In this document: one piece after another, positions 1 through 24,960 of the stretch
How the letters are laid out: the number at the start of each line of letters is the position of its first letter
Position numbering within the stretch: the stretch's first letter is position 1
The notes under the pieces: model-generated
What the model was told of the DNA's origin: nothing
What the model saw: the letters and a program-made list of their open reading frames with translations, nothing else
Database searches by the model: none
Program-made: the position numbers and the translations under genes
Assembly: GCF_000039765.1 (NCBI RefSeq)
Contig: NC_004460.2
Coordinates: forward strand, 960,001 to 992,000
Direction: 5' to 3'
DNA length: 32,000 nt
Origin: Vibrio vulnificus CMCP6
GTDB taxonomy: Bacteria; Pseudomonadota; Gammaproteobacteria; Enterobacterales; Vibrionaceae

Positions 1-274
1 TCAAGTCTCCCTTTTTCACCATTTGGTTATGATCGACAAACACCTGCTCCACCTCTTGACCAATCAGCGGACTTAACACCGCATGAGGCGCCTTCACGGT
101 GGTACTGTTGGTTAGGTCCGCCGGAGACCAAAAGCGATGCGCCGTAAACAAGGCTAAGGCAATCAATACCCCTGTGCCAACAATGATTACCGCATTCCTT
201 AATGTCCACTTAACCAGCCCTGTTTTTACCAACAACCAGCAGATGAACACATAAGGCAACATGATTTCTTTCAT
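1..274 (-). CDS. HlyD-family membrane-fusion/secretion protein (YiaV/AaeA-like), N-terminal fragment running off the window
   Basis: A reverse-strand ATG at 274..272 sits 4 nt after the stop of the 278..784 ORF. It opens a stop-free frame to the window edge: MKEIMLPYVFICWLLVKTGLVKWTLRNAVIIVGTGVLIALALFTAHRFWSPADLTNSTTVKAPHAVLSPLIGQEVEQVFVDHNQMVKKGDL. The pattern is one N-terminal TM helix followed by the 'V..V.V..n..VkkGd.L' hairpin typical of HlyD adaptors, resembling E. coli YiaV as I recall it. This frame is absent from the ORF track; track ORF 27..209 is in a different frame. Confidence 0.7.
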   Translation of the reverse strand, partial: MKEIMLPYVFICWLLVKTGLVKWTLRNAVIIVGTGVLIALALFTAHRFWSPADLTNSTTVKAPHAVLSPLIGQEVEQVFVDHNQMVKKGDL

Positions 275-277
275 CGC

Positions 278-784
278 TTACTCCTTAACGCTGGTGCGGG
301 GCTGGACGCCATTACGAATGATATTAGAGAGCTCTTTGGCCAACACATCCCAACGTGCAAACGCAATAATGATCGCCAACACCCACCACGCTTTATCGAC
401 AAACAACCCGCACAGTGATAACGCAAAGACCAGTTGCGTGTGCGCACTCGACATTTCAGAGGCTCGATGAACAGCCACTTCGTGTAAACGCCAAAAAAGA
501 TAAACCACATAGATAAGGACGGCGACGGTGACAAAGAAAATGAATCCCATAAAGATCTCAGAATCCAACAGGCGCAATATGCTCGGATAGCCATGAGAAA
601 AATAGCTTTCAGGCAAGTCTTTACCGTGAATGGCCCCCAATTTGGATAGCGCAAGTGACGAGCCGACTAACGTGCCAATCACCAATAGGGCTTTAAAAAT
701 AAACCGTAGGGTGCCCATAACGAACCTTGTTATTTTGCTGCCTAGACCTTCCTTTGGCGCTAGGGTTTCTGCAGAGGTAGACAT
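278..784 (-). CDS. small inner-membrane protein, tentatively YiaW/DUF3302-like
   Basis: 168-aa ORF with several hydrophobic helices (LLVIGTLVGSSLAL, MGFIFFVTVAVLIYVVYLF, LVFALSLCGLF, WWVLAIIIAF). It lies immediately upstream of, and nearly abuts, the HlyD-like gene, matching the yiaW-yiaV gene order. An alternative ATG at 718 is possible. Confidence 0.6.
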   Translation of the reverse strand: MSTSAETLAPKEGLGSKITRFVMGTLRFIFKALLVIGTLVGSSLALSKLGAIHGKDLPESYFSHGYPSILRLLDSEIFMGFIFFVTVAVLIYVVYLFWRLHEVAVHRASEMSSAHTQLVFALSLCGLFVDKAWWVLAIIIAFARWDVLAKELSNIIRNGVQPRTSVKE

Positions 785-912
785 GATGTAGAGCCTTGTT
801 TTATTGGTATATTGAGCGGCACATTTTACAAAACTCGCCCAGTCAATTCGGAATTTTCGCTATTCCAAACCTTGGGCGTTTTTTGCACTTTTCTTGATTT
901 AACGTCAGGAAG

Positions 913-943
913 TGAAAAATCCCTCAACCGAAGTTGAGGGATT
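913..943 (-). terminator. rho-independent terminator of the sulfatase gene
   Basis: Hairpin aatccctcaac-cgaa-gttgagggatt (918..943), followed on the minus strand by a T-run (plus-strand gaaaaa at 914..919). It lies 16 nt downstream of the stop at 959. Confidence 0.7.
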
Positions 944-958
944 AGGGGTTAGCACTTT

Positions 959-2983
959 CTATGCTTTTTTATTCGGCATTGGAAGAATCTCAAACAAGCC
1001 ATCAAACTCATCTAAACATTCCGACAGTGCTTTTATCAGTTGGGCATCCCCTTTCAGGTTTGCCTTTCCTTCTTTCACTAGCTTATCTAACGTTGTTTTA
1101 CCTAGTACAATTTGCGTTAAGTCGCTCTTACTGATGCTTAGAGTCACATCGGTATTCGGTAACTTATCCACTTGAATATTGGCCATGTTCGCGTTGGACA
1201 CTTCACCGTAGTAATGCTCTTTCAGCTCTGGATGTGATACACCAAAGCGGAAATCCAGCCCCGCTTGCTCTGCTTTCGTCGCGTTGAGCTTCACCGCTAA
1301 GAAATCAAGGAACATACCCGTTGGGGTGTTGGCAATCACATCGGCCGATGCTGCTTTGATCGATGGACGAATTTCTCCGGTTCTCAACTCAACCGCGCCT
1401 TGCAGATACGAGTTGCGCCACGCCATAGTTTCCGACTGGTAGCCTTGCTGTTCAAAGCTGTCAGCTAACGCAAAACGGTATTGGATATTGTTCGGGTCAC
1501 ACTGAACCAAGTCGTTAAATAGCTGCGATGCTTGCTGATATTCCCCTTTGGCGAAGTGTGTTTGCCCCGCTTTGTATAGCGTTTGTGCGCCAGCGGCTTC
1601 GACGTAAACGCACGATTTATCCTGAGTCGCCAGTGGGTTCGTGTTCACCGGGTTCATATCGTGATAGCCAAGATACAAGTTCACCACAGCTCGAGCGTTA
1701 TGGCTGTAGGAGCCATGGTAACCATTGGTGTGCCAGGTTTCTTTTTGCGTTTGAGGCACAATTTTCTCAATCTCACGGCCCACATCGTGAATGGTCACGC
1801 CATGATTTGCTAAGCGCATCGACTGGTTATGAATAAACCCATAGTTGTCGCGCTGCAGGGTCATGTATTGTGAAATCTCATTCACTTCAGTGTGCGGATC
1901 ATTCCACACTGGCGCTGAGTGCGCGGCGTGAATGTTGTCCACCAAACCGCTGTCGACAAAACGCAGTTTCAGCTCGGTGAGGTATTTGGTCCACGCCAAG
2001 GAATCGCGTACTTTCGCACCACGGAAAGTGTAGATGTTATGCATGCCATCGTAAGTCAGCTCTGCGGTATTGAGAGAGCGATACTTAGGAACATAAAGCA
2101 CCATTTCTGCTGGGGCTTCTGCGCCCGGCATGTTGATCGCGTGGAACTTGAGCCCATCAATGGTCAGCTCTTTTTCGCGAGGTTGGATTTCTTGTGTTGG
2201 CGCCACCAACGTGATTTCACCACGAGAGGTGCCTAAGCCAAGCGCATTATCCACGATGCCTTTGGTATTGTTATCGAGAGTGGTGCCGTATTGATAGTTA
2301 GCACGACGACTCATGGCCGTACCCGCGATGATGTTTTCATCCGCCAGCTCTTTAATGAAATCTTTCGGTGCGTAGATCGGCGCACCTTTAACAAAATCGC
2401 CAGAATCAATAATGCTTCTTGAACCACCGAAATGATCAGCGTGCATATGCGAGTAGATCATGCCGGTGATTTTGTGGCCACCCTTCACTTTAGGAAGATG
2501 CTGTTTGGCAAATTCCCACGCCGCTGCCGCCGCTTCGCGTGACAATAGTGGATCGTGAATCACGTAGCCATTGTTGGTGCGGTAAATGGTCATATTCGAG
2601 AGATCAGCACCACGGATTTGATAAACCCCATCCGTCACTTCATACAAGCCGCCGGCAACGTAGTTGAGCATGCCTTGACGCCAAATCGACGGATTCACCG
2701 TCTCTGGCAACTGCTCTACGTTCATTTCTGCCATATAGTGAAAGCGCTGCTTGAGTTCACCGGCTTGATGGCTACCGAATTCGGCAATAAGCCCACGCTG
2801 AGTGCGCTCAAACGCCGAGATATCATGCCAAGGCAACTGTTTTGCCAGTTCAGCGTTGGCTTGTTTTGTGTGGGCCGTTGCTGGCTTACCTTGATAGTTT
2901 TCTAAGCTGGCGTAGTCCGCCGATGCGCCAAAAGAAACCATCAAAGCAAGGGTAAGGGTTGAGGGTACAAAGCGGATATTCAT
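959..2983 (-). CDS. alkyl/aryl-sulfatase, metallo-beta-lactamase fold (SdsA1/YjcS/BDS1 family), secreted
   Basis: 674 aa. Signal peptide MNIRFVPSTLTLALMVSFGASA; MBL metal motif YSHMHADHFGG. Its length and the C-terminal helical/SCP2-like tail (LDFRFGVSHPELKEHYYGEVSNANMANIQ...GDAQLIKALSECLDEFDGLFEILP) are typical of alkyl sulfatases. Confidence 0.9.
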   Translation of the reverse strand: MNIRFVPSTLTLALMVSFGASADYASLENYQGKPATAHTKQANAELAKQLPWHDISAFERTQRGLIAEFGSHQAGELKQRFHYMAEMNVEQLPETVNPSIWRQGMLNYVAGGLYEVTDGVYQIRGADLSNMTIYRTNNGYVIHDPLLSREAAAAAWEFAKQHLPKVKGGHKITGMIYSHMHADHFGGSRSIIDSGDFVKGAPIYAPKDFIKELADENIIAGTAMSRRANYQYGTTLDNNTKGIVDNALGLGTSRGEITLVAPTQEIQPREKELTIDGLKFHAINMPGAEAPAEMVLYVPKYRSLNTAELTYDGMHNIYTFRGAKVRDSLAWTKYLTELKLRFVDSGLVDNIHAAHSAPVWNDPHTEVNEISQYMTLQRDNYGFIHNQSMRLANHGVTIHDVGREIEKIVPQTQKETWHTNGYHGSYSHNARAVVNLYLGYHDMNPVNTNPLATQDKSCVYVEAAGAQTLYKAGQTHFAKGEYQQASQLFNDLVQCDPNNIQYRFALADSFEQQGYQSETMAWRNSYLQGAVELRTGEIRPSIKAASADVIANTPTGMFLDFLAVKLNATKAEQAGLDFRFGVSHPELKEHYYGEVSNANMANIQVDKLPNTDVTLSISKSDLTQIVLGKTTLDKLVKEGKANLKGDAQLIKALSECLDEFDGLFEILPMPNKKA

Positions 2984-3134
2984 AACGTTATCTCTCTTAG
3001 TGCGTTGTTATGGGCATACTTTAGAAAAACAACACATAGAGATACATGCATGAATGTTTATTTAAAACATCACGATTCGCGATACTTCAACACTTCACCT
3101 TATCAAAGAATCCCTCCTAACAGCATAATGCGCG

Positions 3135-3626
3135 TTAGCCCTTGGGCCAGACGCGATCCAAATCTTCCGCATACAAAGCTATGGCTCTTTGATAACCCAG
3201 AATGGCTTGAGATTGGGTCGTCTCCACCAGTAGATTGAGTAGCAACGCGGTCGATTGATGATGTTTGCCCAAGTTATAAAGGCACATTGCGTAGAACGGC
3301 ATCACTTCTCTTCGCTCAGGAAACTCTTGCAGCGTTTTCTCAAACCAGTTCAGTGCATCTTGATAGTCCCCTAAGCTTCTCAATGTACTGGCCAAACCAA
3401 ACAGGGCTTCAAAGCGGTCATCCCCCGTCAAGTTACCTTGTATTGCCGCCAAATAGTGAGGTACCGCTTGTGATTCCAAACCTTGATTATCATAGCTCCA
3501 AGCAATATGGAGATGCGCTAGCGCTTTGTAGTGCGCGTCTTGAAGCAAGGTGGTTAATTGCGCTCGGCTTTGATCGTATTGCCCAGCTTTTCTCAATTGG
3601 ATTGCGGATTGAATCACCTCATCCAT
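3135..3626 (-). CDS. tetratricopeptide-repeat protein
   Basis: 163 aa, all-helical, with repeated TPR-like units (AIQLRKAGQYDQSRAQL; LASTLRSLGDYQDALNWFEKTL; AMCLYNLGKHHQSTALL). Confidence 0.7.
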   Translation of the reverse strand: MDEVIQSAIQLRKAGQYDQSRAQLTTLLQDAHYKALAHLHIAWSYDNQGLESQAVPHYLAAIQGNLTGDDRFEALFGLASTLRSLGDYQDALNWFEKTLQEFPERREVMPFYAMCLYNLGKHHQSTALLLNLLVETTQSQAILGYQRAIALYAEDLDRVWPKG

Positions 3627-3799
3627 GCGAACTCCCCATTATTGTGCTCATCGTTGTTGAATTTTTGAATGATTGCCGTGAAACGAGCAGAGATCATTTT
3701 CCGCCTCCTCTCACAGTTGAGCCAAAACCTTGATTGACTCATCGCTAAAGTTCCATAAAACTTAGCTCAAAACATAACAAACTGCGATGTATTAAGGCC

Positions 3800-4696
3800 A
3801 TGGATAACCCGATCGACTTCAACTTATTGAAAGTATTTGTCACCGTGTATCGCCACCGTTCGATCACCTTGGCGGCTGACGCCATGGGGTTAACCCAGCC
3901 CGGCGTCAGTGGCATTTTAAAACGTCTACAAGAGCAACTTGGCGTCACCCTGTTTACTCGTGATGGCCGTGGAATTGCCCCCACACACCATGCACATGAG
4001 TTGGCTAGACAAGTCGAACCGGCGCTCAGCCAAATTCACAATGCTTTGGAAAGCCTAGAAGCCTTCCGCACCGACACCTACCGCAAGTTTGTCATTTATG
4101 CGCCAGAGCCTTTGATGCTAACACTGCTGCCTAAGATTGAAGGCGATTCGACACTGGGCAAAATCGACATCGAGCTTCAACACATGCCTTACGATGTAGA
4201 CGAACAGTTTACGCGTTTGAACCAACAGCAAGCGGATCTCGCGATTGATTTTGTGCACCATTCAGCCCCTTCTTTCTATTCAGAAAAGCTGATGAATGAT
4301 GAAATTTGCTTGATTGCACGGCGTGGGCACCCGCGTATTCAAGGGGCGATTAGCCGCGATGAGTATTACCAAGAGAAGCACATCACCTTAAAAATGCGTC
4401 GAGAAAATGTCTACCTCGCCGATTACTTTACCGAAGAGTTTCTCAACGTTAGACGGGTTGCGGCGGAATGCGATTCGATGGTGGCGCAGATGTCACTCGT
4501 TGCCACCAGCGATTGCATTGCCATGGTCACCCGCTCATTGGCGGAGCAATTTGCCGAGACACTGGGTTTGCAAGTTCTCCACTCTCCGATGACTGCTATT
4601 CCCATCACCTATCGGCTTCTCATCCATAACCGAGAGATCAACAGCCCTGCCAACCAATGGCTTCGTGAACGACTCAGTCGCTACTTTACTCAGTAA
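3800..4696 (+). CDS. LysR-family transcriptional regulator
   Basis: 298 aa. N-terminal wHTH LLKVFVTVYRHRSITLAADAMGLTQPGVSGILKRLQEQLGVTLFTR, followed by a substrate-binding domain of LysR length. ATG at 3800. Confidence 0.9.
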   Translation: MDNPIDFNLLKVFVTVYRHRSITLAADAMGLTQPGVSGILKRLQEQLGVTLFTRDGRGIAPTHHAHELARQVEPALSQIHNALESLEAFRTDTYRKFVIYAPEPLMLTLLPKIEGDSTLGKIDIELQHMPYDVDEQFTRLNQQQADLAIDFVHHSAPSFYSEKLMNDEICLIARRGHPRIQGAISRDEYYQEKHITLKMRRENVYLADYFTEEFLNVRRVAAECDSMVAQMSLVATSDCIAMVTRSLAEQFAETLGLQVLHSPMTAIPITYRLLIHNREINSPANQWLRERLSRYFTQ

Positions 4697-4716
4697 CGAC
4701 ATTAACTGAGTACTGG

Positions 4717-6357
4717 TTAACTGCGGCACTGGGCAAAAATATCCAGATCACTTTGATAAACCTGAGTTTTCACGTCCATGATGCCAAGCATAGAGTGGAA
4801 CAGGTTATCGTGAGAAAACGCGCCGTGTGTTGCTTCATTGGCTAAGCATTTTCTGTCTAACCCTTTTTCTTTGGCAAAACCGTTGGATGCCCAAAAAAGC
4901 ATCGGCACTTTGGTTTGGTTTTCTGGCGCGAGCGCATACGGCATACCATGCAAAAAGAGCCCATCTTCGCCCAAGGATTCGCCGTGGTCAGAGACATAAA
5001 TCAGCGCGGTGTTAAACTGATTTTGCAGCGCTTTTAACTGTTCAATGGTCTGCGCAATCACGTAGTCGGTATACAAGATGGTGTTGTCGTAACTGTTAAC
5101 GATCTGCTCGACGCTGCAGTTTTCGATGTCAGCACGCGGGCAATCTGGCTGAAACGCGGCCTGTTGCTCCGGGTAACGTCGGAAATAGGTCGGCCCATGG
5201 CTGCCCATGCCATGCAAAAACACCACTCGGTTTCCTTGCATGCCGTCAACTCGTTGTGAGAAGTCTTCCAACATCGCCATGTCGTAACAGGTATTGCCAT
5301 CGCAGAAGGCATTTTTTGCGTTGCGATCCACCACCGTTTTTTGGATGTTGTGCGCTACGCCTTTGTCACCTCCGTCATTTTCAAGCCACAATTGGTCAAC
5401 GTTGGCGCGTTTCAGAATGTCGATAACGTTATCTTGATTGTCCGCCACGCGCTTCGAGTAGTTATCGTGTTTCATTGCAGAAAACATGCAAGGCACCGAT
5501 ACCGCCGTGGCGGTTCCACACGAAGAAACTTGGCTAAATGAGATCACATCAAGATCTTTGGTGTAAGCGTTGGTTGCTCTGGGGTAACCGTTTAACTCAA
5601 AGTTGTTTGAGCGCGCGGTTTCGCCAAGGATGAACACCATCAGCGTTGGCTTTGTTGTCGCTTGTTGTAACGCTTGTGACGACTGCTGCGCATCCTCACC
5701 CAAGACTTGGTATGCCATGGGCTGATAAAAATACGTGCGGTGAACATACTTACCAATGCTGTACACCAATTGAGTGGGAATGATCTCTTGACGAAGATAA
5801 GGGTTGTTACGCCCAACGGACGCGTAATCTTGGTAGTAAAGCCCGGCAATTGCGACAATCACCGCCAGAGAAATCACCATAGAGACAAGCTTGCGGCCAA
5901 TAAATCGCAGCCAAGAGCCGCTTGAGCGAATCGGTGTCACCGCCAGTAGCACAGCCGGTAGTACCCCCATCAAACCGATCCACAGCACAGAATAGGCACT
6001 GAGGTACGCACTCGCCTCGGCAGAGTCCGTCTCGAGAATGTTGGCGATCATATCGGAGTCAAACAAGGTGCCGTAGTTAAAACCCGCATAGCTCGCCGCG
6101 GCAGAAACCAGCAGCAGCACAGCAAAAAAGGGCTTAGTGATCCAAGGCCAACTGAACAGATTAAACAGCAAATTAAACGCCGCAAGAAAGAACAGCGGGA
6201 TCGAAATGACAAAGCCAATCTTAACGCTATCTAAACTACTTAAGATCGAATGCAACGTGGCGTAGATCGGGATGTTAACCAAAAACGCAAAGTAGCTCGC
6301 CAACATCAATGTGATGCCAACATACGAGAAATGGGTATTTTTTAAAATTCGCTGCAT
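4717..6357 (-). CDS. phosphoethanolamine transferase (EptA/EptB/OpgE family: membrane domain plus sulfatase-fold domain)
   Basis: Five N-terminal TM helices, then a sulfatase-type domain (LMVFILGETARS..., SCGTATAVSVPCMF, YVSDHGESLGE, LHGMPY). The track start at 6402 is a GTG. I prefer the ATG at 6357 (MQRILKNTHFSYVG...), which matches the usual EptA N-terminus. The start is uncertain. Confidence 0.85.
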   Translation of the reverse strand: MQRILKNTHFSYVGITLMLASYFAFLVNIPIYATLHSILSSLDSVKIGFVISIPLFFLAAFNLLFNLFSWPWITKPFFAVLLLVSAAASYAGFNYGTLFDSDMIANILETDSAEASAYLSAYSVLWIGLMGVLPAVLLAVTPIRSSGSWLRFIGRKLVSMVISLAVIVAIAGLYYQDYASVGRNNPYLRQEIIPTQLVYSIGKYVHRTYFYQPMAYQVLGEDAQQSSQALQQATTKPTLMVFILGETARSNNFELNGYPRATNAYTKDLDVISFSQVSSCGTATAVSVPCMFSAMKHDNYSKRVADNQDNVIDILKRANVDQLWLENDGGDKGVAHNIQKTVVDRNAKNAFCDGNTCYDMAMLEDFSQRVDGMQGNRVVFLHGMGSHGPTYFRRYPEQQAAFQPDCPRADIENCSVEQIVNSYDNTILYTDYVIAQTIEQLKALQNQFNTALIYVSDHGESLGEDGLFLHGMPYALAPENQTKVPMLFWASNGFAKEKGLDRKCLANEATHGAFSHDNLFHSMLGIMDVKTQVYQSDLDIFAQCRS

Positions 6358-6420
6358 AACAACCAAACTCAATGTGAAATAAAACCAGCGCAGAGCATTC
6401 ACTGCCCTGCGAATGTGCTG

Positions 6421-6921
6421 CTAAGGCAGCATCGATTTGAGATAATTTTTGCGATTCCATTTGCTCATAAAAATCACGGCCGAGACGTGAACTGCAACGG
6501 CCACTAAGGTTAGGTTGGCAAGCACCTCGTGTACTTCCTCTAACCACTCTTCTCCCCAGAAAAGATCGCTCTCGGTCAACCAACCACTGCCTGCGGTTGC
6601 GATGAGCAGGCTCCACAATAGCCAAATCATCACCGCGCCCGCTGGGTTGTGACCAAGGTGCTTATCCTGCCTGTTGCTCACCACTTCTTTTAGGTGGACC
6701 AGCGCGGCTGAAACAGAAGGCAGAAAGCGAGTTAAACGTGCAGGTGACTCCACCACCAGCCCCCAAGCAAGACGAAGGCTCAAACTCAGTAGGATCAAAT
6801 AACCTGCCCAGTGATGCCATTCGCTGCCCTCTTCCAAGACAAAAAAGTTGGCCAAAAACAGCACTGCCACTGTCCAATGGGTTGCTCGCACAACCCAATC
6901 CCATTTAAAGGTGTTAGTCAT
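6421..6921 (-). CDS. cytochrome b561-type membrane protein (Ni/Fe-hydrogenase b-type cytochrome subunit family)
   Basis: 166 aa with 4 TM helices carrying conserved His residues (ATHWTVAVLF, WHHWAGY, GHNPAGA, HEVLANLTLVAVAVHV). The ATG overlaps the stop of the upstream PepSY gene by 8 nt. Confidence 0.75.
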   Translation of the reverse strand: MTNTFKWDWVVRATHWTVAVLFLANFFVLEEGSEWHHWAGYLILLSLSLRLAWGLVVESPARLTRFLPSVSAALVHLKEVVSNRQDKHLGHNPAGAVMIWLLWSLLIATAGSGWLTESDLFWGEEWLEEVHEVLANLTLVAVAVHVSAVIFMSKWNRKNYLKSMLP

Positions 6922-7195
6922 CCAACTCTTCCTTCACTTTGCGCATGTCGGTGGGATCAAAATAGATTTCGACGCGTTTGTTCTCTTTGGTGTGACCATA
7001 CAATTCATAGCAACCGGTTTTGGTCTTTTTGAACACTTTGATTTTGTAACCCATCGCTTCCACTTGAGATTTGGCTTGCTCAAAGTTAATCCACTGCGAT
7101 TCCGGTGCATTCGTGCACTGTGGATCGGCCAATGCACTGGTTGCGCTGCCCATTGAAATCAATGCGATGGTGGTCAAGAGAAGTGTTTTTTTCAT
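6914..7195 (-). CDS. PepSY-domain periplasmic protein
   Basis: 93 aa. Signal peptide MKKTLLLTTIALISMGSATSALA. A small beta-rich domain (GYKIKVFKKTKTGCYELYGHTKENKRVEIYFDP) of the type commonly paired with cytochrome-b proteins. The overlap suggests translational coupling. Confidence 0.7.
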   Translation of the reverse strand: MKKTLLLTTIALISMGSATSALADPQCTNAPESQWINFEQAKSQVEAMGYKIKVFKKTKTGCYELYGHTKENKRVEIYFDPTDMRKVKEELDD

Positions 7196-7319
7196 GATGG
7201 GGTCCTTGTGTGTGCTTCAACAAGGCGAATCATATCGAGCGAAACTTAAGATTGGCTTAAGAAATAAAATGAATGAATAATGAAGGCGGGATGAAAAAGA
7301 GATCAACAAGGAAAAGACT

Positions 7320-7793
7320 GTGGCAACAGAGCAAACTTGCATCATCTGTCAGATTCAACAAAACAAACTGACACATTTTCTTATCGCAGAGCAAGATGGC
7401 TTCAAGGCGGTACTCGATAAATACCCGATTGCAGAAGGACATATTCTGATTCTTAGCCCAAGTCACGCATCTCATTTAGAGCAACTGTCTGACAGTGAAT
7501 ATGCGACTCTCTTTCAATTTGCGCGTGATATTGGGCAGCAAATGTCACATGTCTATGATGGTGTTTGTGATTACAACGTAATCATCAACAACGGCCAATA
7601 TTCAGGCCAACATATTCCCCACGTGCACCTTCATCTGATCCCAAGAAAGAAAGGGGATTCCGTGCACTTTTATTGGCGATTGTTAACGCGGTTTATTAAT
7701 CCTCTGAGCCCGATGAACACACTTGCAAGACTCAAACGCGTTCATCAAAAATGGCAACAGAGGATCTCTATAGTGGACTCTTCAAAGAGTTAA
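7320..7793 (+). CDS. HIT-family (histidine triad) nucleotide hydrolase/transferase
   Basis: 157 aa with GTG start. N-terminal CxxC (CIIC) and the histidine triad HVHLHLIP. Confidence 0.85.
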   Translation: MATEQTCIICQIQQNKLTHFLIAEQDGFKAVLDKYPIAEGHILILSPSHASHLEQLSDSEYATLFQFARDIGQQMSHVYDGVCDYNVIINNGQYSGQHIPHVHLHLIPRKKGDSVHFYWRLLTRFINPLSPMNTLARLKRVHQKWQQRISIVDSSKS

Positions 7794-7803
7794 GAGCGGA
7801 AGA

Positions 7804-8868
7804 CTAAGCATCGTATTTGCGCTTCATTCTTAACGCGACATTGACCAACGCAATCAACACAGGCACCTCGACCAGAGGCCCGATCACGCCAGCAAACGCT
7901 TGGTCTGAATTGAGTCCAAACACCGCAATGGAAACGGCGATCGCAAGCTCGAAATTATTACCAGATGAGGTAAAAGCGATAGAGGCATTTTGATCGTAAG
8001 GCAGCCCTAAGCGCTTGCCGATGTAAAAGCTGGCAAAAAACATCACCATAAAGTAAATCACCAGCGGGATAGCGATTTGGAACACATCCATCGGCAACTC
8101 GATGATCATGTCACCTTTGAGGCTGAACATCAGCACGATGGTGGCGAGCAGCGCAACTAATGTAATGGGCGAAACACGTGGGATAAACACCTCGTTGTAC
8201 CACTGCTCACCTTTGGCGGCGACCAGCCATTTTCGGCTTAAAAAGCCCGCTAAGAATGGGATACCAAGATAGATCAAAACACTTTGTGCGATGTCGAGAA
8301 TCGTCACATCGACCACCACGCTTTCCAAGCCAAAATAGGGCGGAAGCACCGTGATAAACAACCACGCCATAAAGCTGTAGGTAAAAATTTGAAAAGCGCT
8401 GTTCAGCGCTACCAACGTGGCACCGTACTCTTTATTGCCGCCGCTGATGTCATTCCAAACCAGCACCATTGCGATGCAGCGTGCCAAGCCAATTAAAATA
8501 AGCCCGACCATATACCCCGGTTGATCACGCAGGAAAATGATCGCCAAAACGAACATCAAAATTGGCCCGACGATCCAGTTCATCACCAGCGACAAGGTGA
8601 TGGCGCGTTTATCGCGAGTCACTTCACCCAGTAGGCTATAGTTGACCTTAGCCAGTGGCGGATACATCATTAAAATCAACCCAATAGCCAACGGAATATT
8701 GGTCGAGCCCACCGAAAGCGCTTCATTCCACTGCGCGACTTGAGGGAACAGCACACCAATGCCGACCCCCACCGCCATGGCGAGAAAAATCCATAACGTT
8801 AGGTATCGATCAAGAAAGCTCATCTTTTGATAAGCACTGCTCTCTTCACAACTGACGGTCTGGTTCAT
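7804..8868 (-). CDS. acr3: ACR3-family arsenite efflux transporter
   Basis: About 10-TM protein with the ACR3-like N-terminus [23 protein letters not shown] and the [11 protein letters not shown] segment. I chose the ATG at 8868 (RBS AAGAGG 7 nt upstream). The longer track ORF extending to 8934 would overlap arsR. Confidence 0.9.
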
Positions 8869-8900
8869 ATCAACCTCTTTCAAATTTGTTCTGGATGCGC

Positions 8901-9248
8901 TTATTGGGCGCAATGACTCACATCGCTGCGGCAAGACTTGCCAAGGATGCTTTCTAGCTCTGATTCAATAAACGCAAAATTGTTTTCCAACGTGGTTTGC
9001 AGCACTTGCTTCATCCAAGGAGCAAGCTGAGGATGGATTTGGTAGTAGACCCATTTACCGCGGCGTTCATCCAACACCAGCTCCTGCTTACGTAGCTCAG
9101 CCAGATGGCGAGAGACTTTCGGTTGGCTTACATCCAGGGCTTCCATCAAATCACAAACACACAACTCCCCGAGCTTTTGCATTAAAAGCAGAGATTTAAG
9201 ACGAGTTTCTTCCGAAAGTGCTTTGTAGAGAAAAACGGGATTAGACAT
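8901..9248 (-). CDS. arsR: ArsR/SmtB-family metalloregulator
   Basis: wHTH with the metal-binding ELCVCDL motif and [16 protein letters not shown]. It lies directly upstream of acr3. I prefer the ATG at 9248 over the GTG at 9257. Confidence 0.85.
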
Positions 9249-19261: not shown

Positions 19262-19280
19262 GTACAGTTCTGTGAGGAGC

Positions 19281-19304
19281 GAGTTAGAGGGAAGGCTCTA
19301 ACTC
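19281..19304 (+). terminator. hairpin downstream of the DMT gene (possible terminator; marks the left edge of the low-GC islet)
   Basis: A 9-bp stem gagttagag / ctctaactc with a 6-nt loop, followed by gttgtt (a weak U-tract). Confidence 0.45.
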
Positions 19305-19558
19305 GTTGTTGGACATTTTTAATTTGACACCGACGGACTAACTTTCACCCTATTAATAACTTTTAGTATCCAAAAGCACAATCAGGTACTGTTTATCACT
19401 GTTCCTGAGATTCAAAGAAATGGACAAAAACTTCCATCTTCAACCAGTTGTGTTAGATTCATATTATGCACTTTTTCAGCATAACATGCAGATCATCCTT
19501 AGAAATACTTGTCCCCTGAAGTAAATTTCAACTCAAATCGAAACTTATAAATAAATCA

Positions 19559-22174
19559 TTAAAAAACCTCTAAGATTTTCTTATAAGTCTCGTGTGTGAC
19601 AATACTACGGCCTTCAGACAAGAGAAAGTTCTTCAGAACGTCGTAAGCTAGCGGATTATTGCCAATTTCTCTGGCCAATTGCTCAGGTATTATTCCTTTT
19701 GAATCTTCAATTTTTAGTAGCCCAGGTTTCTTTTCAATTAATAGTTCAATTATAGGCAGATCACCCATGCGAATAGCCGTATGTAACGCTGTTTCACCTT
19801 CTTCGTTAATTAACGTCGCATCACAACCATGCTCTAGTATGAGATAAGCTGATTTTAAGCATCGACTAGCTGCTGCTGCATGTAGGGCGGTTCTACCCGT
19901 GAAATCTTGAAGATTCGGATCTGCGTTTGCTTTTAGTAATGCTTCTACCGTTTGATGATCTCTGTTGTTTGCAGCTAACATCAAAGGTGTCTGGAGTTTA
20001 AAGTCAGTTATATTAACGATTTCTGGCCATAATTCGATGATTTTCCTGATGCCTGTAACCATCGCACTAAATACATTACTAACTTCATTAGCAATATCGA
20101 CTTGTACCATCTGTTTATAAGAATTTAATTTAGCACGCATTTCATAGCTCATCTTCATCATTAGCAAAATGATGCTATCTGCTTGTGGATATTTCAGTTG
20201 TTTATTTTTTAAATCTTTGTGTTTTTTAAGTACTAGCTCAATAGAATATCCATTTTTTATACACTCTGCGAAATCACGACTAAACTTTCCCATATCGCTA
20301 GAACAAGAAGAAAAAAGCGGTTGATAGTTAGGATAGCATTGATACAACTTGTCCCAAAAATACTCATGTAACTCACGCGAAACGTCATAAATATTAGATT
20401 CTACTTTCAGTCCACCCCAGTAGTACATGTCTCTAAAGTACTTTTCGTGATTATTAGGAATGAGTTTTTGGTTTGCTATAGCCAATGAGAATGCATCTCT
20501 AGCTAACAATCCTCTAAACTTTCCAAAGCTGTATTTCTTACATTCATCGATAGCCAAATTAAGATTTTTTTCTGCTTCTTTAAGCTTGTTCTGCGCAATA
20601 TAATGAAGTGCTTCATAACGTAGTATATTTGCTTTTGAAAATTTAAAATCATCACAGTTTTTCGCCTCATCTAGTAAAGCAGATACTTTTTCTTCGGTTT
20701 TTGAACCAAACTTCTTAAGGAGTAGATGAGTTTCTAGTTCAAATAATATTCGCCTCATCGACTCTGTAGGCGTGGCTTCTAAAGATTTTAACCTTTCAAC
20801 AATCATTTCACCTATATTAGGATTTGAATATTGATTCATCTGAACGATTCTAGCCCCATATACTAGCTCAAAATCATCAATATTCTGTAATTGTTTAAAT
20901 GGAGCTTTGTTTTGTTTTAGTTTATCTATTAAAACATCTCTACGCATAAGGTAATTATTTGAATAATCACCTTCTTCTTTTATAAGTTTACACATTTTTT
21001 CAAATTCATCTTGAGACGTAGGAAAGACATTATCTAATATATCCTCTTCTCCAGAACGGCTAAAAATACAATTAATTCTATCTAAAGCACTCCATGGGAT
21101 ATCGTGTTCATTGTCTGTGGTAAAAAGTCGTAATAAATCATACCTATAAAAGGAAGGAAGTTGTTCTTCAAAATACTTATTTTCCGCATGGTATCCTAAA
21201 CTTCCCTTTTGAATATGAGCTTTAAAAGTTATATTATATACGTAGTTGTAAAGTTCAACTAATTGGAGTGTTTTATTTTCATTTAAGTCAAAACATAGCT
21301 TATCGACTCCAGGTGTTAAATACTTAACTAATTGCTCATACCCCTCTTGAATAGCTCTGGCTATCAGCAACCTCATACGTATCACTTCAGAGCTTGGTGC
21401 CTGATATCGTACTTTTAGTTTCTGTACAAAATCTTGCTGCTCCGCTGCTGGGCATTCACTCCTTATTATTCGCTTTAAGTCTTCACAATCAATAGCTATT
21501 TCATGCTGTAAGTCTTCATAAGACAAACCTTTTTTTTCAATAAACTCCAGAGCCTGTTCAAATTGCGAAGACTTTTCATCAGGCTCAAAGCAGCCACAAA
21601 ATTGTATATTCACTTTATCGAGGAACAGATTATTAATACTTGATACTTCAGGAGTACTCTTGGCTTTTTTCCAATTGTAAAGGTTCTTTAACACTGTACC
21701 GTGGCCATCATGAATTTTTAGATCTTTTTCCAAATTGCTAGCAATAGATTCATGAGTTCCTTGAATTAAATCGATGAGCCAATTCAAGACTCGCGGTACA
21801 GGGAGAAGAAGCTGCTTAGGTTCAATCGTAGAGTCTACGGCAGGAAGATACCAAAACCGTCCGCCAGGCATACCCTCATCCATTTTTGATTCAATTTGCC
21901 AAAATACCGTATGTCTCGCTAGAGCTGGTATGATAACCCTGGCTAAATAATGCCAAACGATTTTTCTTTGTGACGCCTTTGAAGAATAAACATTAAGCTC
22001 GATGTTCTTATGCATCAAGTAATCGTCTGCAACATTGGAGGTCAGATCTTTTTTCGCTCTTTCATCAAGCCCTAAAGCATCCGCTATATCATCCAAAATA
22101 CTTTCCCAAGTATTAGATAAATTATCCATCGTCATCTCGACATATTTAAACTTGCTTTTCGATTTTGACGTCAT
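19559..22174 (-). CDS. large helical-repeat protein with C-terminal ankyrin repeats, function unknown
   Basis: A long uninterrupted ORF in AT-rich DNA. Ankyrin repeats lie at about 19660..19990 (TPLMLAANNRDHQTVEALLKANADPNLQD / GRTALHAAAASRCLKSAYLILEHGCDATLIN / GETALHTAIRMGDLPIIELLIEK). A TPR-like segment is KANILRYEALHYIAQNKLKEAEKNLNLAIDECKK. I see no P-loop or obvious catalytic motif. The start is uncertain: the first ATG is at 22174, but the frame stays open to a GTG at 22384. Confidence 0.8.
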   Translation of the reverse strand: MTSKSKSKFKYVEMTMDNLSNTWESILDDIADALGLDERAKKDLTSNVADDYLMHKNIELNVYSSKASQRKIVWHYLARVIIPALARHTVFWQIESKMDEGMPGGRFWYLPAVDSTIEPKQLLLPVPRVLNWLIDLIQGTHESIASNLEKDLKIHDGHGTVLKNLYNWKKAKSTPEVSSINNLFLDKVNIQFCGCFEPDEKSSQFEQALEFIEKKGLSYEDLQHEIAIDCEDLKRIIRSECPAAEQQDFVQKLKVRYQAPSSEVIRMRLLIARAIQEGYEQLVKYLTPGVDKLCFDLNENKTLQLVELYNYVYNITFKAHIQKGSLGYHAENKYFEEQLPSFYRYDLLRLFTTDNEHDIPWSALDRINCIFSRSGEEDILDNVFPTSQDEFEKMCKLIKEEGDYSNNYLMRRDVLIDKLKQNKAPFKQLQNIDDFELVYGARIVQMNQYSNPNIGEMIVERLKSLEATPTESMRRILFELETHLLLKKFGSKTEEKVSALLDEAKNCDDFKFSKANILRYEALHYIAQNKLKEAEKNLNLAIDECKKYSFGKFRGLLARDAFSLAIANQKLIPNNHEKYFRDMYYWGGLKVESNIYDVSRELHEYFWDKLYQCYPNYQPLFSSCSSDMGKFSRDFAECIKNGYSIELVLKKHKDLKNKQLKYPQADSIILLMMKMSYEMRAKLNSYKQMVQVDIANEVSNVFSAMVTGIRKIIELWPEIVNITDFKLQTPLMLAANNRDHQTVEALLKANADPNLQDFTGRTALHAAAASRCLKSAYLILEHGCDATLINEEGETALHTAIRMGDLPIIELLIEKKPGLLKIEDSKGIIPEQLAREIGNNPLAYDVLKNFLLSEGRSIVTHETYKKILEVF

Positions 22175-22290
22175 CTGACCATTAGCGCCAAGCGCTTTAG
22201 CAATCTGAAGAAGTACCGATTCGAAGGTTGGAAAAGTAGCCACTGAATGTCCTTTTATTGTTTCGTTTTCCGCTAGAAAAAGAAAATTGA

Positions 22291-22299
22291 GGGGGGGGG
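22291..22299. repeat. G9 homopolymer tract (C9 on the minus strand)
   Basis: Nine consecutive G in an otherwise AT-rich stretch, 72 nt upstream of the pVip ATG. The tract lies inside the optional N-terminal extension of the ankyrin ORF, where it is read as TCC CCC CCC CTC. Confidence 0.95.
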
Positions 22300-22371
22300 A
22301 TGTTGCTTTTCCTTTTTCTACAGAGCCGATTTTATCATACTGAAGCCATCTGAATACCTGAGAATAAAAGC

Positions 22372-23289
22372 ATGACAACAGCACAATCTAGAAAAACAAA
22401 AGAACTGGTAATCAATTGGCACATGACAGAAGTCTGCAATTACAGTTGTAAATACTGTTTTGCAAAATGGGGACGCCCCAAAGAACTCCATCGTTCAGAA
22501 CAGGCAATCGATAACTTATTGGATAAGCTAGCAGACTACTTCATCAAAGGCACTCCAGTCTTAAAAGAAAAGCTGGGGTACGAAAGTGTTCGTCTTAACT
22601 TTGCAGGAGGGGAACCAATGATGTTAGGAAATACGTTCGTTACCGCTTTGGTTCTTGCAAAACAAAAAGGATTTAAAACCTCAACCATAACTAATGGACA
22701 TTACCTAATTCATGGAAAATCACCGTTGCCGAAAGATACTTTAGACATGATTGGAATCAGCTTTGACAGTCAGTACTTAAGTACACGTATGAAAATAGGA
22801 AGAAACGATCGAAAAGGAAACTCTTTTGGCGTTAATGATTTAACACATGCTCTAGCGAGACTCACACAGTCACAAACAGGAATCAAAACAAAGATTAATA
22901 CTGTAATTAACAGTCTTAATTGGGAAGAGGATTTCACTAATTTAATTTCTAGTCTAAATCCATACAAATGGAAAGTGTTACAGGTCATGCCTTATGGTGA
23001 TAATGAACTACTAATTTCCAAAGAACAGTTCGATAATTTTGTTCATAGACATAGTGGATTAGGATTACCTATTTATTTTGAGTCTAATTCTACTATGACA
23101 GAATCATACTTAATGATTAGTCCAGAGGGTTGCTTTTACCAAAACACTGCCAATAAATCTGGGTATAAATACAGCGAATGCATTAATTCATGCGGTGTGG
23201 AAAAAGCTCTTTCTCAAATAGAGTTTAATCCAATTACGTTTGCTTCAAGATATAAAAAAACTAATATTGACATTGTAGATGTATCATAA
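22372..23289 (+). CDS. viperin-like radical-SAM enzyme (prokaryotic viperin, pVip-type)
   Basis: 305 aa. INWHMTEVCNYSCKYCF contains the CxxxCxxC cluster in the viperin context N.H.T..CNY.C.FCF. NFAGGEPM is the SAM-binding GGEP motif. ITNG, ISFDS, KINTVINSLNWEEDF and LNPYKWKVLQVM follow, and ESYLMISPEGCFYQN is at the C-terminus. These are colinear with human viperin motifs as I recall them (NFSGGEPF, VSNGS, ISCDSF, KINSVINRFNVEEDM, LNPVRWKVFQCL, DSYLILDEYMRFLN). Confidence 0.85.
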   Translation: MTTAQSRKTKELVINWHMTEVCNYSCKYCFAKWGRPKELHRSEQAIDNLLDKLADYFIKGTPVLKEKLGYESVRLNFAGGEPMMLGNTFVTALVLAKQKGFKTSTITNGHYLIHGKSPLPKDTLDMIGISFDSQYLSTRMKIGRNDRKGNSFGVNDLTHALARLTQSQTGIKTKINTVINSLNWEEDFTNLISSLNPYKWKVLQVMPYGDNELLISKEQFDNFVHRHSGLGLPIYFESNSTMTESYLMISPEGCFYQNTANKSGYKYSECINSCGVEKALSQIEFNPITFASRYKKTNIDIVDVS

Positions 23290-23374
23290 AATCTTTTAAC
23301 AAAAATGAAACAAATAAACTAGATTCCTTATTATAGGAGCTATAAATAATCACAAAATATTAGATGAGGAACAA

Positions 23375-23992
23375 GTGAATAAATTTATCGTTTTTGAAGG
23401 GTTAGATGCATGTGGGAAAACAACATTAAGCTCTATATATGCGAAAGAAATGAATACTATCGTTCATAATGCGGTAGTCCCTGAAGCTCATGATCTAAGA
23501 AAGGTCATTGACTCCTATGAGTCAAAAGAGAGTGCATTTCTATTTTTTTTGTTAAATAATTTATTGAAGAGTAACGATGTTTCGAAATTATTAAACGATG
23601 AAGATGTCATATTAGATAGATATGTATTTTCAACTTTGGCCTACCAAACAATTATGCTTGGGGAAGATATTGTCAAAAATATTTTTGACACACTTAAAAT
23701 TAATAAAAAAATACTTCTTCCAGAAGTGATAATTTTTGTTAAAGCTGATATTGAAACAATAAACAACAGAATAGAGGCCAGAGGTGGCACAGTTCAGTGG
23801 TACGGCGATGCAGTTACGCAAAATAATAGTGTTGAATCAGCATATCACAAAGTTTTTAAGTGGTTTGATATTCCAATTGTAGAGGTCGATACATCAGAAA
23901 AATATGGCCGTTCGGTAGAAGAAAATTACCTACTAATGAAAGAACAGGTCGAGCACGTTCTTTCGGGAGGGAGTAATTTTTACAGTTTCTAG
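23375..23992 (+). CDS. thymidylate-kinase-fold nucleotide (NMP) kinase
   Basis: 205 aa with GTG start and GAGGA 7 nt upstream. P-loop IVFEGLDACGKTT (Tmk: EGxxGxGKTT), the Tmk-type LDRYVFSTLAYQ (Tmk: DRhxxStxAYQ), and a LID-like NNRIEARGG. The NMP-binding region is divergent, so substrate cannot be assigned. Confidence 0.8.
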   Translation: MNKFIVFEGLDACGKTTLSSIYAKEMNTIVHNAVVPEAHDLRKVIDSYESKESAFLFFLLNNLLKSNDVSKLLNDEDVILDRYVFSTLAYQTIMLGEDIVKNIFDTLKINKKILLPEVIIFVKADIETINNRIEARGGTVQWYGDAVTQNNSVESAYHKVFKWFDIPIVEVDTSEKYGRSVEENYLLMKEQVEHVLSGGSNFYSF

Positions 23993-24355
23993 TTCAATAT
24001 CTCTCGGTGATATTGTATGAACATGCAGACGTAAATTACTGGTAAAGAAAGCCGTTTCTACTTATGTTTGGACGAAAGAGAGGACTACTGCTCCGTGATC
24101 CGAAATAAGCAAATGTAAGGTGAGATCCTGGCTAGATTGAAATGCAACTTATTGCGCAAACTCATATAGGGGCAATTTCGTGTTACATACCCCGTCAGCA
24201 CACCTTTGGACAAAGACGTACTATCACCTTTGCTAAATTAGCAATTAATGAATAAATGTAGGTATGGAAAGTAGTTAACTTTATGCCCAATATCAATGGT
24301 GCAGATCACTGATTACATTTACCTTAAACGATAATGCCTCACCTTACCCAACACA

Positions 24356-24393: not shown

Positions 24394-24960
24394 TTATCTT
24401 GTTATCCGAATACGAGTTTCTAACGTTTCCTCGTAAATATCTTCAACATGATAAGGCTCTATCGGTTCATTAGAAATAAGCCATTCACCTATGATTAAAT
24501 CGTCTTCCGTTTTGATCGAAATACAATTGCCATCAACAAGCACAATGTTGAAGCCAAAGTCATAAATGACAACCTCTGAAGAAGGGATAAAGACTTTAAA
24601 GTTTTCTTTTACTGCTTTACGACTGCGTAACCTAACGACTTCTATAAATTCTATTGCCTTAGATTCTTCGAAAAGCTTTACCTCCTCAAGTTGCCCTGCC
24701 TTAACGTCTTTTGGGTTCAATTCATGAATAAATCTTGCAATAGGCAAATGAAAGTCATGACCTTGAGGGCTGGTATACCAATCGTTGCTTAACTCAATAA
24801 AACCGGTAGGTATCTGGAAAAATAAAGAATACAGGCTCGTCACTGTATTCGATTCAAAGCTAGTGCCCTCACTGCTCGCCATCACTTTACATTTTAGCCC
24901 TATGATGGATCGCAGTGCCTGTATAGATTCACCATCCATCTGATAATTTAGCGTTTCCAT
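24394..24960 (-). CDS. hypothetical protein (islet orphan)
   Basis: 188-aa ORF with an ATG start in AT-rich DNA, where long ORFs are unlikely by chance. No signal peptide, TM segment or motif that I recognise. Confidence 0.55.
   Translation of the reverse strand: METLNYQMDGESIQALRSIIGLKCKVMASSEGTSFESNTVTSLYSLFFQIPTGFIELSNDWYTSPQGHDFHLPIARFIHELNPKDVKAGQLEEVKLFEESKAIEFIEVVRLRSRKAVKENFKVFIPSSEVVIYDFGFNIVLVDGNCISIKTEDDLIIGEWLISNEPIEPYHVEDIYEETLETRIRITR

Follow-up and report, generated by a model that had tools for sequence, protein, structure and literature searches.

Viperins are a textbook immune enzyme common to bacteria and animals, and the prokaryotic viperins (pVips) turn CTP, UTP or GTP into 3'-deoxy-3',4'-didehydro nucleoside triphosphate (ddhNTP) chain terminators that abort phage transcription. 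A locus in Vibrio vulnificus CMCP6 raises the question of whether such an enzyme is inherited together with a partner. Within a stretch of 32,000 nucleotides (NCBI RefSeq assembly GCF_000039765.1, contig NC_004460.2, positions 960,001 to 992,000 of the forward strand; this whole stretch is hereafter the window, to which coordinates refer unless another locus is named), a pVip gene (22372-23289, plus strand, 305 aa) is followed 85 nt downstream on the same strand by a nucleotide kinase gene (23375-23992), and a gene for an 894-aa protein with ankyrin repeats at its C-terminus (19559-22243, minus strand), here called the large protein, is transcribed divergently from both. A first-pass annotation had proposed that the three genes constitute a module, and the three open reading frames (ORFs), as well as the order and orientation of pVip and kinase, were borne out by our analysis. 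We found that the link between viperin and the large protein is real and widespread and that the conserved unit is this pair, with the kinase and the ankyrin repeats as optional parts.

A viperin gene and a large gene inherited as a divergent pair

The proposed linkage of the large gene to viperin held up when the neighbourhoods of its homologues were surveyed. A divergent pVip lay directly upstream of the large gene in 10 of 11 close loci, sampled across 45-93% identity, and the large gene was present at 14/14 places retrieved via the pVip cluster. The surroundings of the close loci were otherwise unrelated, comprising Tn7-like elements, integrases, IS66, type I restriction-modification and AAA_13 genes. 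For distant loci, a degenerate DNA probe for the family motif GMPGGxFW[YF]LP, designed without reference to viperin, was applied to metagenomic DNA and recovered 120 loci, 119 of which encode a family member; 88 of them contained enough upstream DNA to be informative, and a full-length pVip-like gene was found directly upstream, always divergent, in 54 of these (61%). Head-to-head orientation and a spacer of ~100-220 bp are kept from 26% to 99.9% identity, in unrelated surroundings that include core metabolic genes, and the identities of the large protein and of pVip to the window copies co-vary (Spearman 0.70, p = 3e-10, 61 distinct pairs). The linkage is similar for family members with ankyrin repeats (31/44) and without them (9/15). 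Together, these surveys show that the large gene and pVip form a divergent pair that is inherited together across very wide sequence divergence.

The viperin-like character of the radical S-adenosylmethionine (SAM) gene, which had likewise been claimed, was confirmed by profile and structure-database searches. The protein carries the radical-SAM motif EVCNYSCKYCF at residues 20-30, which fits the viperin context CNYxCxYCF, with the Cys triad C22/C26/C29 in CNYSCKYC (22435-22458, plus strand). It matches the NCBIfam model NF038283 viperin_w_prok over positions 1-281/281 at 327.7 bits (cut-off 180) and the PADLOC model PDLC02904 ('associated with kinases') over positions 1-262/262 at 420 bits; in a PADLOC check of the whole islet, pVip, VakA and 'Ankyrin' models were all matched. 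Its nine best PDB sequence matches are viperins, viperin-like enzymes or full-length relatives (E 2e-21 to 3e-18), the solved relatives including 7n7h, 5vsl and 6b4c, and the next radical-SAM class follows at E = 6e-4. A Vibrio vulnificus protein recorded under the name 'viperin family antiviral radical SAM protein' has the identical sequence, and sequences identical to pVip and to the kinase are recorded in Vibrio vulnificus and relatives. On these matches, the gene is a bona fide pVip.

The kinase gene (plus strand, 205 aa) begins at a GTG preceded by a GAGGAA ribosome-binding site and encodes an intact P-loop, GLDACGKTT (23399-23425, plus strand), together with the DRY motif DRYVF. It scores 58.4 bits against Pfam Thymidylate_kin (cut-off 27), 35.2 bits against dNK and 242.8 bits against PADLOC VakA (PDLC02911), its closest solved relatives are thymidylate kinases, and its 78.9 bits against the dTMP kinase equivalog TIGR00041 lie under the cut-off of 83.25. 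It is an accessory, AT-rich gene, named 'deoxynucleoside kinase' in sequence records, and by these scores it is a viperin-associated Tmk-fold kinase that falls short of the criterion for a housekeeping Tmk. A CMPK2-like kinase, as found beside animal viperin, raises substrate supply by phosphorylating nucleoside mono-/diphosphates. A role for kinases near viperins has published support, and 12% of bacterial viperins have a kinase within 3 genes, most of these kinases, not all, being CMPK2-related (Shomar et al. 2023, bioRxiv 10.1101/2023.09.13.557418). The pVip-kinase order is kept in loci L001, L012-L025 and L055.

As a three-gene module, the proposal stood for the large gene and pVip, which are conserved together, and failed for the kinase, which is a local option: among the family loci compared, it is restricted to the window's clade and one metagenomic relative (L055), and elsewhere a Cys-rich or HicA-like protein replaces it. 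At 9 of the 11 close loci, pVip is followed by a gene for a protein of 93-117 aa with two Cys-rich repeats, ..Y.C.KC..WHLS.. and ..YKC.....WHLTK; the gene occupies this position at L002 8464-8817 and L003 8571-8924, in L005-L011, and in L037, L046, L050, L073, L091 and L097. Its product gives a weak match to the treble-clef zinc finger DUF4379, the 117-aa form has no matching PADLOC model, and a remnant of the small Cys-rich gene, sought in the window, was not found there. At 12 distant loci (L030, L036, L043, L049, L067, L100, L109, L110, L114, L117, L127 and L136), a HicA-like protein of 63-82 aa is encoded directly after pVip, its start codon overlapping the pVip stop; it scores 106 bits against PADLOC PDLC02910. 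No HicB-type antitoxin gene is visible at the HicA-like loci, and the large divergent protein or a leader hairpin could be the missing regulator. A further gene, for a 304-312-aa NYN/OST-HTH protein with a weak match to PADLOC 'CSD_V' (PDLC02916), follows the pVip and Cys-rich genes at L006 3600-4514 and L007 3617-4555.

The 34 informative distant loci without pVip present no single alternative partner, a few having the Cys-rich protein alone or a tiny conserved peptide. At L104, the Cys-rich protein is paired with the family gene in the absence of pVip. At L078, L083, L092, L122 and L128, also without pVip, a ~27-aa peptide (M..QPNWPSK..G.KSGGGRDN.PPKK) is encoded divergently 46-95 nt upstream of the family gene, of which it may be an alternative partner. 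Among the close loci, L004 (ERZ3422389 NODE_98, 1-9000) holds a 62%-identical family member without pVip as cargo of a Tn7-like element (TnsD/TnsE), where the gene adjoins a VspR-like regulator and a helicase, and two tiny ORFs sit where pVip would be.

The large protein and its family

The maximal ORF of the large gene spans 19559-22384 on the minus strand (941 aa). Of the earlier description, an ORF of about 870-940 aa ending in ankyrin repeats, the repeats were confirmed and the length settled at 894 aa, the upstream start at 22384 finding no support. Translation almost certainly begins with the GTG at 22243: this codon is preceded, at 6 nt, by AAAGGA, annotated homologues are 891-896 aa long with the N-terminus MATFPTF, and the family alignments and the PADLOC model start there. 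The GTG at 22384, which would give the 941-aa product and a 13-nt overlap with pVip, was rejected, as the ribosome-binding site, the alignments, the PADLOC model and the homologues all favour 22243. With the start at 22243, the divergent control region becomes 128 bp (22244-22371), correcting the 0-197 bp given before.

The protein matches the PADLOC model PDLC02908 'Ankyrin' over positions 2-880/880 at 1312.6 bits (E = 0). A search with the non-ankyrin part (aa 1-723) yielded 50 homologue clusters at 45-93% identity, nearly all of 857-947 aa, and an exhaustive search with the N-terminal part yielded 226 clusters at 50% identity. AlphaFold2 modelled the full-length protein with a predicted local distance difference test score (pLDDT) of 83.4 and aa 1-723 with a pLDDT of 88.2 and a predicted template modelling score (pTM) of 0.84. 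The model is all-helical, with a single small beta-hairpin just after the GMPGG motif.

Three regions can be distinguished along the chain. The N-terminal helical region, which is part of the family core (aa 1-~480; 20804-22243, minus strand), includes the signature motif D-x-G-M-P-G-G-x-F-W-[YF]-L-P (aa 122-134; 21842-21880, minus strand), which is near-invariant over 48 family representatives of 21-47% identity. Pfam returned nothing on this region, even by segments at E <= 10, and neither it nor the aa 1-723 model had a Foldseek match below E = 0.001 in PDB or BFVD. A helical solenoid resembling tetratricopeptide repeats (TPRs) follows (aa ~480-735; 20039-20803, minus strand), with weak Foldseek matches to the KLC TPR domain, PlcR, ComR, PilF and APC5 (E 0.05-0.7) and with sub-threshold Pfam TPR matches, which occur likewise in the relative P0083. 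The C-terminus consists of 3-4 ankyrin repeats (aa ~745-880; 19604-20011, minus strand), matched by Pfam Ank_2 at 67.1 bits and Ank at 60.6 bits, as well as by Ank_3, Ank_4 and Ank_5 (residues 787-887 of the 941-aa ORF); the model shows helix-pair repeats here, and all PDB sequence and fold matches to this module are ankyrins or DARPins.

The label of an ankyrin partner thus proved right for the window, where the repeats are real, and wrong for the family, where the module comes and goes. It is present in 65/65 representatives of at least 800 aa and absent from 49/51 of 600-700 aa, and ~40% of the representatives of at least 600 aa (49/119) lack ankyrin repeats; PDLC02908 matches such relatives over positions 1-635. 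As judged from these representatives, the ankyrin repeats are an optional C-terminal add-on of the family. Because the kinase and the ankyrin module are both inconstant, the conserved core reduces to a ~640-aa helical protein encoded divergently from pVip, a core that the name of the PADLOC 'Ankyrin' model hides.

The absence of a visible catalytic motif, remarked on in the first-pass annotation, extends to library and fold searches, which detected no catalytic domain or fold in the large protein and, in any library scanned, no signature of nucleotide binding or of a nuclease, hydrolase or transferase. Nor was a helix-turn-helix (HTH) or other DNA- or RNA-binding domain found by Pfam (including segment scans), NCBIfam or fold search. 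A loose analogy that had been drawn to RNase L, in which ankyrin repeats are fused to a pseudokinase and a KEN ribonuclease, found no support, since the large protein has no kinase-like or RNase domain in the libraries or fold searches. The family is of cellular, not phage, origin, with 0 matches in 2.9 million viral contigs and PHROG matches confined to the ankyrin region. With a core of no known fold, it is a new protein family.

The cassette and its control region

The genes lie in an islet at ~19.3-25.0 kb that is AT-rich, as had been noted before, with a GC content of 0.31-0.39 vs ~0.48 in the flanks. Its neighbours are genes of sugar-acid metabolism, eda, kdgK and an EamA transporter on the left and an rpiB-like gene, a cupin gene and kduD on the right. 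Within the islet, pVip, the kinase gene and the large gene form a co-inherited, AT-rich cassette of 4.9 kb (19277-24186). A copy of 99.9% identity over 4911 bp (L012) occupies, in other strains, another chromosomal site, between FapA and DUF1456 genes, and copies in L001 (95.5% identity) and L018/L022 (91%) stand in further, different contexts. The cassette encloses exactly three genes, with no integrase, transposase or other mobility gene between 19277 and 24186. In the view that explains these data best, it is a self-contained, horizontally mobile viperin unit with a predicted anti-phage role.

Near-identical copies of the cassette occupy at least 3 chromosomal sites in Vibrio, and its ends are sharp (19277-19310 and 24175-24198); the left junction bears a GC-rich hairpin, GAGCGAGTTAGAG...CTCTAACTCG. 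A 188-aa ORF (24394-24960, minus strand) lies in the AT-rich islet outside the shared cassette. It has homologues in Vibrio only (68-100% identity, all annotated hypothetical) and no match in Pfam, NCBIfam, PADLOC or PHROGs, and it was rejected as a fourth component, being outside the cassette and missing from L001 and L012.

The 128-bp control region shows no sigma-70 consensus promoter by simple scan. It contains a conserved half-site (22291-22313, plus strand) that consists, in the sense of pVip, of a G9 tract (22291-22299) followed by ATGTTGCTTTTCCT, and that reads G(n)-(T)AC-N5-8-(C)TTTC(A) in general form. Measured from its distal end, the tract precedes the pVip ATG by 81 nt in the window and by ~80 nt generally. 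G9 is the sole G/C run of at least 8 nt in the 32-kb window (expected 0.17), and motif and tract are kept at every close locus and in 46/57 distant family-pVip intergenic regions. Further towards pVip, ATACT (22337-22341, plus strand; AGTAT on the minus strand) is invariant in an alignment of 10 intergenic regions and is a candidate -10 element of one divergent promoter.

In many distant clades, a second copy of the half-site stands upstream of the family gene in mirror orientation, and the two copies make up a palindrome of 15-24 bp with conserved GAAA...TTTC ends and with cores that are clade-specific and mutually complementary. At least 12/16 Watson-Crick pairs were counted in 20/57 regions vs 2/1140 shuffles, in-register pairing was 80% vs 25-38% in shifted register, and several positions show two or three Watson-Crick pair types. 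Folded as RNA, the palindromes have z-scores of -6.7 to -10, and the hairpin matched no family in Rfam. At loci without pVip, a half-site occurs 78-88 nt upstream of the family gene in 15/46 vs 2% of random windows, and its behaviour is therefore that of an element proximal to the gene at either promoter. In the window's clade, the family-proximal copy is deleted, and what is left is a weak A-U stem (z about 0) whose loop holds the C9 run. Apart from the window, half-sites or palindromes were located in the intergenic regions of L018-L025 (~3880-3960) and of L067, L093, L127, L082, L066 and L137.

Among near-identical copies, the tract comes in several lengths: C9/C10/C11 in a sister Vibrio clade and, in four metagenomic clades, C6/C7/C8/C9, C7/C8/C9, G6/G8 and G7/G8/G9. 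Tract differences amounted to 45 per 622 tract nt vs 54 indel nt per 12,299 outside, a ~16-fold excess to which assembly homopolymer error may contribute. The half-site could serve as a phase switch, an operator or a structure of the 5'-untranslated region. As to a possible role of the tract as a -35/-10 spacer, candidate -10 hexamers downstream of it are of poor quality, and the simple scan gave no sigma-70 consensus. Two further ideas were rejected. One was a polyproline leader peptide (ATG-AAA-AGx-xxx-GTC-CCC-CCC), whose ATG is replaced by AGG in the window and by ACG/AGG in several clades, the sequence being the outer part of the TGAAA...TTTCA palindrome. The other was a 'ddhCTP trap' in which the C-run would provide feedback, dismissed by reasoning, as the gene body holds far more C positions than the tract.

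Possible sensing and regulation, and known systems

How might such a pair operate? We consider it somewhat probable that interchangeable effectors are gated by the large protein, acting as a sensing or regulatory subunit without catalytic activity, and that expression is tuned or switched by the G tract. A non-catalytic, binding-type role is suggested by the confident all-helical model, the lack of a fold match and of Pfam domains beyond ankyrin and weak TPR, and, equally, by a constant partner with variable effectors and by the modularity of optional domains. Under this gating hypothesis, the helical core and the TPR-like and ankyrin surfaces of the large protein would bind a cue, be it a protein, a nucleotide or a nucleic acid, and gate an effector arm that varies between pVip with the kinase, pVip with a HicA-like RNase and pVip with a Cys-rich protein. 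pVip would make ddhNTP chain terminators and so abort phage transcription, the kinase would feed pVip by phosphorylating nucleoside mono-/diphosphates, and slipped-strand changes, by altering how long the G tract ~80 nt ahead of pVip is, would probably set or switch the expression of the pair. More tentatively, and with some doubt on our side, the pair may be a two-part immune module in which a sensor/regulator of new fold (the ~640-aa core, with or without ankyrin repeats) gates pVip plus a kinase, HicA-like RNase or zinc-ribbon protein, expressed via the G(n)-TAC-core-TTTC element, whose hypermutable tract and often covarying palindrome would give heritable on/off or graded switching. If true, this would be the first phase-variable viperin immunity.

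Several observations weigh against gating by the large protein and switching by the tract. The family lacks pVip in 34/88 (39%) of the informative distant loci, some of which have other small genes, so that it is not viperin-specific. A frameshift interrupts the large gene of Vibrio metoecus OP3H (L003 9968-12692), and in L024 (133-3967) the gene is split by a DDE transposase insertion of an insertion sequence element, pVip being intact in both; such inactivation suggests that the partner is dispensable for survival, or costly. pVips expressed alone reportedly protect E. coli, which, if so, means that the partner is not needed for catalysis. As for the tract, it is fixed at 9 nt in 7/7 copies of the window's clade, and homopolymer length differences between assemblies can be sequencing artefacts.

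The divergent arrangement and the half-site also lend themselves to another account, which we think unlikely, namely that the large protein regulates both divergent promoters as a sequence-specific binder of nucleic acids, acting via the G(n)-TAC-core-TTTC half-site at the transcriptional or post-transcriptional level and not by protein-level sensing. With the half-site upstream of pVip and, in most clades, of the large gene too, the locus would be a classic divergent regulator-target pair. The fixed distance of the half-site from the start codon (81 nt for pVip; 78-88 nt for the family gene in the 15/46 loci without pVip) agrees with this, as do paired cores that are identical when inverted and differ between clades, which would fit a co-evolving, locus-specific recognition, and the weak fold matches include the TPR-containing transcription factors PlcR and ComR. 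However, those matches cover generic TPR helices only, at E > 0.2, no HTH or other nucleic-acid-binding domain emerged from Pfam, NCBIfam or fold search, and an 894-aa repeat protein is atypical as a simple repressor. In addition, since the hairpins into which the inverted repeats fold are very stable (z -6.7 to -10), the complementarity of the repeats could reflect nucleic-acid structure and not protein binding.

A role as effector or enzyme seems to us distinctly improbable: here the large protein would be an effector or enzyme of unrecognised fold that acts on ddhNTPs, nucleotides, RNA or a phage component, or that shields the host from viperin products, with the repeats for targeting. Its most conserved residues are indeed polar or aromatic and N-terminal, not in the repeats (E8, R110, D158, R279, R289, R296, Q299, N323, Q327, Y336, N337 and the GMPGGxFWYLP loop), the N-terminal region is no plain solenoid, given that no fold matched it, and family members are also found without pVip. 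Yet the region is all-alpha, lacks any of the enzymatic signatures searched for and matches no solved or viral structure, and the conserved residues may just as well form the lining of a groove for a ligand or partner. That the large gene is independent cargo, hitch-hiking beside viperins in defence islands, a caveat raised in the first-pass annotation, we regard as very improbable. Defence genes cluster in general, 39% of the distant family loci have no pVip, and L004 holds the family gene alone as Tn7-like cargo. Against this stand the adjacency in three surveys and the co-divergence of the large protein and pVip (rho 0.70), which disfavour independent inheritance, together with a head-to-head orientation and ~100-220-bp spacer that stay constant from 26% to 99.9% identity in unrelated surroundings, a shared intergenic region that holds a conserved element, and cassette boundaries that enclose exactly the three genes.

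The locus had been called undescribed. This is right as to publications, a literature search having found no paper that links pVip to an ankyrin or TPR partner, none on the large protein and nothing relevant on V. vulnificus viperin, and it is wrong as to databases, since PADLOC-DB 2.0 includes full-length 'Ankyrin', VakA and HicA-like models. These belong to a block that comprises PDLC02903-02905 pVip, PDLC02908 'Ankyrin', PDLC02910 'HicA-like', PDLC02911 'VakA' and PDLC02916 'CSD_V', and the large protein, the kinase and the small HicA-like protein of the distant loci all match models of the block over their full length. The models carry no description field, and we found no publication on them; as the 'Ankyrin' model is numbered beside the pVip models, we infer from the numbering that the neighbourhood was evidently catalogued by curators and not described or tested. 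The pair of viperin and helical partner is thus catalogued as PADLOC hidden Markov models, yet no published description of it was found. Neither Shomar et al. (bioRxiv 10.1101/2023.09.13.557418) nor Gerdes (PMC10865869) mentions the large divergent gene. The latter describes hicA and relE genes that adjoin pVip (classes 9 and 10) and leaves open how viperin-linked, antitoxin-less RNases are controlled (Gerdes 2024, mBio, PMC10865869), for which the large protein is a candidate answer. Class 10 corresponds to our 12 distant loci in which a HicA-like gene overlaps the pVip stop; the window differs in having the kinase instead.

A partner conserved in most members of a pVip lineage is a candidate for the missing control or sensing step of a chain-terminator enzyme, and it might also control the antitoxin-less HicA genes beside viperins, the question raised in PMC10865869. 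The hypervariable G tract and the covarying palindrome suggest, as a simple hypothesis, that this costly defence may be switched stochastically. At 4.9 kb the cassette is small, and as it is self-contained and present in culturable Vibrio, these ideas can be tested directly.

Known defence systems share individual traits with this locus. Repeat-domain sensors are exemplified by the TPR domains of Avs/STAND NTPases and the TPR peptide sensors of the RRNPP family; the likeness is that of a large helical-repeat protein without a catalytic domain and with interchangeable effectors, and the difference is that here no NTPase, HTH or effector domain resides in the same polypeptide and the N-terminal 480 aa have no fold match. 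Phase variation by homopolymers is familiar from porA and opc of Neisseria, fim of Bordetella, the divergent hif promoter of Haemophilus, 'phasevarions' and the pglX G-tract of the Streptomyces Pgl system. Our locus resembles these in that its divergent promoter region holds a G/C homopolymer (6-12 nt) whose position is conserved and whose length, in the assemblies, varies among near-identical copies, but its tract lies ~80 nt from the start codon, not demonstrably between -35 and -10, and within a longer half-site or palindrome, and is invariant (9 nt) in the window's clade. Viperin and CMPK2 are reported to form a pair (Gizzi et al. 2018), which the window recalls in its Tmk/nucleoside-monophosphate-kinase-fold gene directly downstream of pVip in the same orientation; in this lineage, however, the kinase is the exception, its slot being held elsewhere by a Cys-rich or HicA-like gene. 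Finally, the pVip of the window is like known pVips (Bernheim et al. 2021, Nature 589:120) in that the enzyme passes viperin models and lies in a mobile, AT-rich islet of the defence type. Those are regarded as systems of a single gene, whereas the pVip of the window belongs to a conserved divergent pair and shares a structured control region with its 894-aa partner.

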